The notes beneath the pieces were generated by a model. That model saw nothing but the letters and a program-made list of their open reading frames with translations, searched no databases and was not told where the DNA came from. Positions 20,833 through 44,116 of a stretch of 64,000 bases of DNA are shown here, in pieces. Every line of letters starts with the position of its first letter. The stretch's first letter is position 1. The DNA is from Octopus vulgaris. Taxonomy: Eukaryota. The translations under genes and the position numbers were made by a program. The stretch lies in the NCBI GenBank assembly GCA_951406725.2, contig OX597819.1, positions 66,588,001 to 66,652,000 on the forward strand, written 5' to 3'.

Positions 20833-20880
<48 letters not shown>

Positions 20881-20886
<6 letters not shown>

Positions 20887-21260
20887 CAAATTAGAGACAA
20901 AACCACTATTAGGCAAATCAAACAAATTAACTTAGACAAATTAACTTGGCGAGTTCATTGTTTAAACCTCGCCAAGTTAAATATTTAAACCACCTGATGA
21001 ATGACTGCGACTCAAAAATTTGAAGATGTTAGCAGGCATGAAACGATCGTAGTGTGATATTAATTATATTTTTTTAATAATTTTGTTATATATTTAAATA
21101 ATATAAATTAAATAATATTATGTATTGGATTAAGTTTTTCATTGTTTGATTTGCCTAATAGTGGTTTTGTCTCTAATTTATAATAATATAATATTTTACT
21201 ATAAAATTGGATTCAATCCTAAATCTGATTTTTCCCTGTAAGTTTGGATTTATTCCCTAA

Positions 21261-21263
<3 letters not shown>
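20881..21263 (+). mobile_element. Penelope-like fold-back element carrying hairpin plus hammerhead, inserted in (TA)n
   Basis: 38-bp perfect inverted repeat (20888-20925 vs 21142-21179), unpaired 3' tail to 21263, (TA)n on both sides; sister copy at 43696-44030. Confidence 0.75.
20991..21054 (+). ncRNA. Type-I hammerhead ribozyme
   Basis: CAC-CTGATGA-ATGACTGC...GCAGGCAT-GAAAC-GATC-GTA-GTG; stem II 7 of 8 pairs; predicted cleavage after 21051. Confidence 0.85.
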
Positions 21264-21312
<49 letters not shown>

Positions 21313-43080: not shown

Positions 43081-43610
43081 CATTGGCTGGAAGCCTCATA
43101 AATTTGAATACTATGCGAGCGTAGCAATTACTAAACGTCTCTTGTCACCATCAACGGTGATAAGTGGGGAAATGGTACTTAGATATATCGCAATTGGCTT
43201 ATCAGAAAATGGAGAAAAAAAATTTTTTTCTTGGTGAATCATCTCATTTATGCATTTGCCTAATTCGCCACTCGTGACAGCAAAAACAAGCCTTAAACTC
43301 TAATTGATTGGTACTTTGGAAATTTATGTAGGTGGTCTCTGAGGATTAATAGTTCGATGCTCTATATAGCAGAAATTATATCAGGAGTATCTGAGCATTT
43401 TGGCTGAAAGTTTCCTTTCTATGGTAGACATATTATTCCCTGTTGATAACGCGAAGTTCATGGATGATAATGTGTCGATTAACATATTTAATATCGTTAA
43501 AAAAACTTTTTTATAGAAGCAGACGCCTTCAATTGGTTTTTACAAACATTGGATCTCATTGTGATTAGATTTCCATCGTATGTTATATGAGTGTGTGAGT
43601 ATATATATAT

Positions 43611-43693
<83 letters not shown>

Positions 43694-43695
43694 CA

Positions 43696-44033
43696 TATTA
43701 TATTAAATTAGAGATAAAACCACTATTAGGCAAATCCTACAATGAAAAGCTTAAGCCAATACATAATATTATTTAATTTATATTATTTAAATATATAACA
43801 AAATTAATTAAAAAAATATAATTAATATAACACTAATTTTGTTATATATTTAAATAATATAAATTAAATAATTTTATGTATTGGCTTAAGTTTTTCATTG
43901 TATGATTTGCCTAATAGTGGTTTTATCTCTAATTCAATATAATATAATATTTTACTATAAAATTGGATTCAATCCTAAATCTGATTTTTCCCTGTAAGTT
44001 TGGATTTATTCCCTAATATTTATTATTATATCT

Positions 44034-44073
<40 letters not shown>

Positions 44074-44116
44074 GTATAAATATAATAATAAATATTAGGG
44101 AATAAATCCAAACTTT
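43696..44116. mobile_element. Fold-back sister copy of the 20881 element lacking the hammerhead core
   Basis: Arms 43696-43806 and 43834-43944 are inverted; the tail is near-identical to 21180-21263; a short third inverted piece lies at 44080-44116. Confidence 0.8.

Follow-up and report, generated by a model that had tools for sequence, protein, structure and literature searches.

A head-to-head Penelope-like stub in the Octopus vulgaris genome and likely hammerhead cleavage in vivo within its family

Results

The insertion at 43696-44019 and its sister copy

We examined a window of 64,000 nucleotides of the Octopus vulgaris genome (assembly GCA_951406725.2, contig OX597819.1, positions 66,588,001 to 66,652,000 of the forward strand), in which window positions 43696-44019 hold a head-to-head pair of pieces from the 5′ untranslated region (UTR) of a Penelope-like element (PLE). 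This hairpin copy, which is dead and encodes no protein, is inserted in a (TA)n run that occupies 43600-43695 on its left side and resumes at about 44030; no target duplication is distinguishable inside the (TA)n repeat, and a repeat search of the whole window was dominated by microsatellites. The inverted arm (43696-43833, minus strand) is a reverse copy of the 5′ UTR, equivalent to positions 21189 down to 21052 of a sister copy in the same window. The direct arm (43834-44019, plus strand) is equivalent to 21078-21263, and its last ~69 nt (43951-44019) form a ‘tail’ that is absent from inverted arms. The minus strand from 43835 to 43695 is 93.6% identical to sister positions 21050-21189 over 141 nt, and 43834-44031 is 94.9% identical to 21078-21275 over 198 nt. 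The two arms overlap by 112 nt (21078-21189), and the unpaired loop, 21052-21077, sits on the inverted arm. A first-pass annotation, made from the letters alone, had described 43696-44030 as a sister of the 20881-21263 element that lacks the hammerhead core; this holds, and both sequences that it quoted are exact.

The sister copy begins with a short inverted arm (20872-20925, minus strand) that aligns to 21194-21142. Its exon-1 leader (20952-20980, plus strand) starts with AGTTCATT at the inferred transcription start, and in longer genomic copies is followed by a GTATGT intron. Between these two lies a 25-nt filler (20927-20951) with an inverted copy of 20968-20980, giving a 13-bp hairpin at the 5′ terminus of the element. 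A predicted type I minimal hammerhead ribozyme follows at 20990-21055 (plus strand), placed by motif and by comparison of variants, and the rest of the direct arm covers 21056-21263 (plus strand), with end points that are fixed in the family near 21194 (inverted arms) and 21263 (tail).

The hammerhead consists of stem I (CCAC/GTG), the core CTGATGA at 20994, a long stem II, GAAA at 21040-43, a stem III formed by the palindrome ACGATCGT, and the triplet GTA at 21049-51. The predicted cut is thus 21051/21052, and 21052 is its first downstream base, as first annotated. Rfam returned no hammerhead match for the whole window or for 20900-21250. Of 81 distinct hammerhead variants, nine were found in at least four arms each; these nine keep 3-4 of the 5 pairs of stem I and all keep stem II, which varies in sequence yet stays paired. 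The stem III palindrome is perfect in eight of the nine and switches between ACGATCGT and ACAATTGT, as expected of a dimeric ribozyme (PMC4209133, in the text available). CUGAnGA, GAAA, an NUH triplet, the stems, a palindromic stem III and covariation are all present, the features by which a minimal type I hammerhead can be predicted.

At the junction of the hairpin copy, the dinucleotide TA (43834-43835) is common to both arms, matching 21078-79 in the direct and 21050-51 in the inverted one. The TA microhomology that the first-pass annotation had seen there does match both arms, but it also leaves the breakpoint at 21050, 21051 or 21052, since the junction TA doubles as the UA of the GUA triplet. 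If TA served as microhomology, the complementary DNA (cDNA) had extended beyond the scissile bond, on an uncut RNA; on a cut RNA, the TA match is chance. The two readings, which had been offered together, are therefore mutually exclusive for this copy, and because TA belongs to both arms the copy alone cannot show cleavage.

Motifs place the repeat in a Hydra-clade Penelope-like element

In the 2.8-Gb assembly, there are 1187 exact matches to a 36-nt stretch of the tail, and in the sampled copies inverted arms begin near 21194 and direct arms finish at 21263. A fragment at one locus (L132) provided the lead to the long open reading frames (ORFs) of the element. At L366, an 838-aa ORF carries YRDD and, at its C-terminus, VYKC..VYIGST (GIY-YIG); the repeat lies directly 5′ of it, with 88% identity over 159 nt. 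At L373, the repeat flanks a 695-aa ORF on both sides. The L366 ORF also has DKT (QSDKTRN), CxCX5C (CTCRDKSNC), CxxC (CYLC) and CxH (CRH) motifs and is without CCHH, while its N-terminal RWK position reads RIKWK, i.e. KWK. Pfam and PDB searches with this ORF gave no match. An inverted arm is present in 137 of 183 copies, and the combination of (TA)n flanks, a 5′-truncated inverted copy and a tail is that of the Hydra clade, to which the element is assigned by these motifs. As in Hydra-clade PLEs (PMC8557442, as far as its available text describes them), there is a single ORF with a C-terminal GIY-YIG, DKT, a CxCX5C linker, CxxC and CxH but no CCHH, together with a hammerhead, (TA)n targets and an inverted 5′-truncated copy plus tail; unlike them, the tail is ~69 nt rather than 30-40. 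The Naiad clade was considered and rejected, given the C-terminal endonuclease and the presence of a hammerhead.

Among 104 classified long arms, 94 have the leader joined directly to the hammerhead, whereas long genomic copies (L345, L346, L348, L353 and L355, near 3000) have a GTATGT intron between the leader and the hammerhead, ending just 5′ of the latter. Because leader and hammerhead are joined without the intron, the stubs are copies of the 5′ end of spliced RNA. A few short copies keep the intron end or follow the 3′ UTR of the ORF; most are spliced.

Arm ends pile up at the predicted cut

To place the arm ends, copies were sampled by the tail alone, regardless of their 5′ end, namely: the first 100 of the 1187 matches and the first 100 of 264 matches to a second pattern. 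Removal of overlaps left 185 copies, and two tandem duplicates were dropped, giving 183 copies and 320 arms. Inverted arms were counted only at a score of at least 60 (137 copies), and ends were set by best-parent alignment; offset 0 is an end at the base equivalent to 21052. Arms stop at 0 to +12 past the cut in 75 of the 218 cases at risk, compared with 16 of 143 at -13 to -1 (p=5e-7) and 25 of 243 at +13 to +25 (p=3e-10). The stop rate at 0 to +12 is alike in subfamily A (56/162) and subfamily B (19/56).

Exact ends were also counted genome-wide in subfamily A with patterns that demand two non-template letters, using reversed patterns as control. At offsets -3, -2, -1, 0, +1 and +2 there are 10, 40, 8, 54, 18 and 13 ends, against 0, 0, 0, 1, 2 and 8 in the controls. 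Among the first 30 of the 54 offset-0 matches, 27 are true ends, 2 are small substitutions and 1 was left unassigned. Of the inspected offset-0 ends, nineteen join a partner arm, microhomology being absent at 15 of these joints, and the partner ends cluster in a zone that includes +26 (13/19). Subfamily B has 11 offset-0 matches, three of them from one locus. The spike foreseen by the first-pass annotation is thus present at the base equivalent to 21052, with a cliff just upstream. An excess of T before the cut base (46/54) was considered as untemplated A and rejected, since ~46 are expected from B letters at A=T=0.43.

The inferred transcription start served as a positive control: 8 of 82 ends there are exact and 59% fall at +3 to +10, while at the cut 6 of 100 are exact and 62% fall at +3 to +10. 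Because transcription-start ends spread similarly, the broad peak past the cut can be read as run-off plus trimming within this PLE family.

U6 is joined at the cut in four families

While offset-0 matches of subfamily B were being inspected, the 3′ end of U6 was found joined at the cut; Rfam confirms U6 in L335 and L342. A search for head-to-head U6 ends gave six palindromic loci, namely: L486 (G000:C4:31799587-31799724), L490 (C25:22215561-22215709), L485, L487, L488 and L489. All six are inverted-arm-plus-tail insertions in microsatellite runs, i.e. U6-PLE chimeras, and in all six the U6 3′ end is joined right after a hammerhead-type triplet, at the predicted cut, in four families. All 12 arms read ATATTTTT and then element sequence, so that the 3′ T-run of U6 is intact and the joint direct. 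Two of the loci belong to the PLE family of the hairpin copy, and the other four were placed in families F2-F4 via their relatives. The U6-joined base follows GAAAC-nn-GTA in F2 (full motif in 18 of 29 relatives) and GCAAC-nn-GTA in F4 (25 of 29); in F3 it is preceded by a looser TAAAC..GTT/GTC (17 of 28). When U6 ends were sought within 280 nt upstream of the conserved motif of the hairpin copy's family, all four arms found (2 loci) had U6 at the cut, and likewise all four U6 ends found for F4 (the F4 pattern did not match F2). Two more candidate U6 joints of the F2 type are among the matches listed.

U6 3′ ends are common outside these families. Of 177 counted, most are not PLE joints, and for the first 30 of them the stretch that follows U6 has no match among the four families. 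In many of the 100 matches listed (e.g. L455-L462), U6 is followed by one of a few short-repeat 3′ ends that recur, and this suggests that other U6 chimeras form a large set; L463-L466 resemble a tandem U6 gene array.

Cleavage by a hammerhead yields a 5′-OH end. The ligase RtcB is described as joining the U6 cyclic phosphate (U6>p) only to a 5′-OH (PMC6789731, in the portion available), and ligation of U6 to this end by RtcB would be expected to produce a U6 joint at the cut. The fusions give support for cleavage in vivo that does not depend on the breakpoint histogram. U6 might instead have been added by the reverse transcriptase (RT) jumping from the 5′ end of cut RNA to the 3′ end of U6, without ligation, although cleavage would still be required. 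End-to-end jumps are known for the RT of R2, and on a single arm the DNA product would look identical. An identical joint on both arms, however, needs two identical jumps, and no U6 joint was found at the transcription start of the family, an end at least as common (a comparison resting on only 2 loci); we regard this route as unlikely.

Cleavage in the family and in the hairpin copy

From these patterns in the genome, hammerhead cleavage in vivo appears very probable. A number of points weigh against this reading and should be set beside it. In the sample, only 6 of 320 arms end exactly at the cut, all of them among the first 91 copies, with no such arm in the 92 copies added later, and each offset from +3 to +9 is as common as 0 or commoner (6-13 arms each), over a stretch that is AT-rich, with short palindromes, at the foot of stem I. 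The spreads at the start site and the cut site are not identical (KS p=0.023). Genome-wide, 1307 arms of subfamily A run through the cut compared with 54 that end there, and its -2 class is large (40). In the young subfamily C, with intact ORFs, 1169 arms run through the cut and 8 end exactly there, of which one is probably a chance match and two come from a single locus; this differs from A at p=2e-8. Its stop rate is 8/80 among the first 100 of 2935 matches, which yielded 91 arms. As for the U6 joints, the parse of the F3 cut leaves an uncertainty of 1 nt; the cores of F2-F4 are non-canonical (U3-A8 in F2 and F4, GCAA for GAAA in F4, an apparent A3-U8 in F3); and the two loci of the hairpin copy's family, which share no derived change, could share one ligation event. 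The breakpoint of the hairpin copy itself is ambiguous by 2 nt. Finally, in the available text on a lizard element, insertion proceeded normally with hammerhead mutants, and none of the RNA-seq reads started at the cut (PMC11167929).

Some of these points would fit a pile-up produced with no cleavage at all, by RT stalling at the hammerhead helices together with AT-rich palindromes that favour joints. The broad +3 to +10 peak lies at the 3′ foot of stem I, on ATATTAAT-type palindromes, and subfamily C, with an intact-looking hammerhead that is GC-rich after the cut, shows little pile-up. Such stalling leaves unexplained the single-base peak at 0 with its dips at -1, +1 and +2, as well as U6 placed at the triplet in four unrelated sequence contexts, and we consider it very unlikely. 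Subfamily C may carry a weaker ribozyme; alternatively, the peak may owe its shape to sequence context.

Subfamily C (L366-L376) is a young group in which open frames of ~830-860 aa are numerous; it was probably active recently and shows little pile-up at the cut. At L380 (G000:C6:116842851-116842892), a subfamily C insertion has the ends of both its arms precisely at the cut, and a 6-nt palindrome is inserted between the two.

For the hairpin copy itself, the odds are even between an origin from cut RNA and one from uncut RNA, in which the cDNA would have run to 21050 or beyond and been joined via the TA microhomology. TA does match the template at 21050-51, the majority of arms run through the cut site, and the 40 arms ending at -2 genome-wide exceed the ~15 estimated (at A=T=0.43) as chance overlap from true offset-0 ends. 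Against an uncut template, some of the -2 joints of one subfamily can be read as ends at 0 with a 2-nt AC match, and the partner end of the hairpin copy, at +26, falls where offset-0 partners cluster (13/19). The first-pass annotation had taken the insert as copied from self-cleaved RNA, a fossil of ribozyme activity. At the family level the histogram and the U6 joints bear this out; for this copy they do not, given the TA overlap and the general lack of microhomology at joints on the cut (15/19).

Both arms come from one source, probably by two-pass copying

The arms within a copy differ by 1.8%, compared with 9.9% from a random copy. Both arm ends lie within 0 to +30 in 32 of 137 copies (odds ratio 11), and both arms carry the identical U6 joint. 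By these sequence comparisons the two arms of one copy derive from one source. Two independent RNAs from different loci were rejected as the rule, with 14 of 226 arm-to-arm differences being alleles common to other copies.

As to how one source gives two arms, it had been proposed that the RT folds back on reaching the cut 5′ end: a tail-primed cDNA would reach that end, fold back and copy itself to 21194, with the loop later flipped or partly deleted. Fold-back of a tail-primed cDNA should leave the unpaired 5′ loop on the tail-bearing arm. Fold-back would explain arms of one source and their correlated ends; the geometry it predicts is found in five offset-0 copies and in two of the six U6 loci, and palindromic junctions of rotifer PLEs have been interpreted as self-priming (PMC3846280, in the text available). 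The hairpin copy has the mirror geometry, however, as do many others. Across 137 copies the inverted arm is longer in 64, the direct arm in 40 and the two are equal in 33 (64 versus 40, p=0.024), and at offset-0 joints with an assignable tail the inverted arm is longer in 12 and the direct in 5. Flipping at a later stage can account for at most 50%, and arm divergence shows no trend: among the least diverged copies, 9 are inverted-longer, 6 direct-longer and 4 equal. More of U6 is held by the short arm in three of the six U6 loci, by the tail arm in two and equally in one. Fold-back at the cut end, as first annotated, is not borne out by these geometries and seems improbable. The PLE protein of the lizard extends both target strands from two internal starts (PMC11167929, available text), and two-pass copying of this kind is the route we favour with fair confidence, on geometry only, a limit that also counts against it.

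Taken together, the hairpin is best explained, at a probability of roughly 0.6, as PLE RNA copied from two internal starts with the cDNA ends joined, in a family whose arm ends pile up at the cut and whose ribozyme would cut a minority of the RNAs. The endonuclease would open both strands of the (TA)n target, each end priming cDNA synthesis on the same RNA, and each cDNA would extend until drop-off or a physical 5′ end, namely the cap or the ribozyme cut. The two cDNA 3′ ends would then be joined, often after a loss of 3-10 nt. The cut would leave a 5′-OH, to which RtcB would sometimes ligate U6, and cut RNA could give only stubs of ~210 nt or less unless re-ligated. The hairpin copy is an ordinary dead PLE stub with an ambiguous breakpoint, in a family with good indirect evidence of ribozyme cleavage in vivo; the idea of cleavage holds for the family, and the fold-back mechanism probably does not.

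Discussion

Whether the weak hammerheads of animal PLEs cut in vivo, and how inverted pseudo-long terminal repeats (pLTRs) arise, are stated as open questions in the literature (PMC4209133, PMC8557442 and PMC11167929, in the parts available). The genome offers two cheap read-outs that bear on them: a cliff in the breakpoints at the scissile bond, and U6 fusions, which locate this bond to a single base.

The predicted ribozyme resembles the minimal type I hammerheads described from metazoan PLEs (Cervera and De la Pena 2014, PMC4209133) in its long stem II, short stem I and palindromic stem III, and in an intron that ends just 5′ of the ribozyme; a U3-A8 core variant like those of F2 and F4 is also found there. 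For those hammerheads the available text gives low in vitro activity and describes in vivo evidence as absent. The Hydra-clade report (Craig et al. 2021, PMC8557442) calls the function of the hammerhead unclear and, in its available text, does not map breakpoints against the cut.

A mechanistic parallel is Poseidon (PAc) of Anolis carolinensis (Frangieh et al. 2024, PMC11167929, of which part of the text was available). There, two internal starts define the tail, both target strands are cut and extended, and uncut RNA is the main template; the end points at 21194 and 21263 match two such internal start sites. PAc differs in having no RNA reads at the cut and in that cleavage is dispensable in vitro, while here a minority of ends and all of the U6 joints found lie at the cut.

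U6/LINE-1 chimeras (Moldovan et al. 2019, PMC6789731) also have the U6 3′ T-run joined directly to retroelement RNA that is then retrotransposed. In the text available, their joints are variable and the nuclease is unknown, in contrast to the single base, set by the predicted ribozyme of the element and seen in both arms, of the present loci. In R2, the cut site of an HDV-like ribozyme is likewise reflected by the 5′ junctions in the genome (Eickbush et al. 2013, PMC3774820, available part), although there the cut is the normal 5′ end, and here it marks a minority of short stubs. A non-LTR retrozyme (head-to-tail hammerhead units; bioRxiv 10.64898/2026.07.22.740005, as far as available) was rejected as an identity for the hairpin copy, the copies being head-to-head stubs and 43696-44019 being without a hammerhead.

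In twin-priming inversions of L1, the inverted and direct parts cover adjacent, mostly non-overlapping RNA. The arms of 43696-44019, by contrast, overlap by more than a hundred nucleotides.

A wider model may be put forward tentatively, at somewhat less than even odds. PLE hammerheads, including those with U3-A8, A3-U8 and GCAA cores, would cut in animal cells; RtcB would ligate the 5′-OH ends, giving U6 fusions; a dimeric enzyme would copy one RNA twice from two internal starts and join the cDNAs into an inverted pLTR; and the same ligase could circularise full monomers, giving partial tandems. Among titles and abstract openings (with subscription journals thinly covered), we found no report of a breakpoint cliff or of U6 fusions at a PLE cut. 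The two read-outs name exact nucleotides and include unusual catalytic cores, and they provide a natural contrast between subfamilies A and B, with strong pile-up, and subfamily C, with weak pile-up.

Other observations

To the right of the hairpin copy, an extra inverted fragment of the tail end (44080-44115, minus strand, equivalent to 21240-21275 by alignment to the sister copy) stands alone, 60 nt from the insertion. On 21076-21175, one contig of run X8 (guessed to be RNA) has a cluster of A>G differences in the arm region, as hairpin editing would give; strain or allele differences may explain it instead. In the contigs of four sequencing runs there is no position at which many molecules start or stop, a pattern that contigs are in any case unable to reveal. 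At L296 (G000:C5:17338081-17339055), an entire palindromic insertion is tandemly repeated three times.
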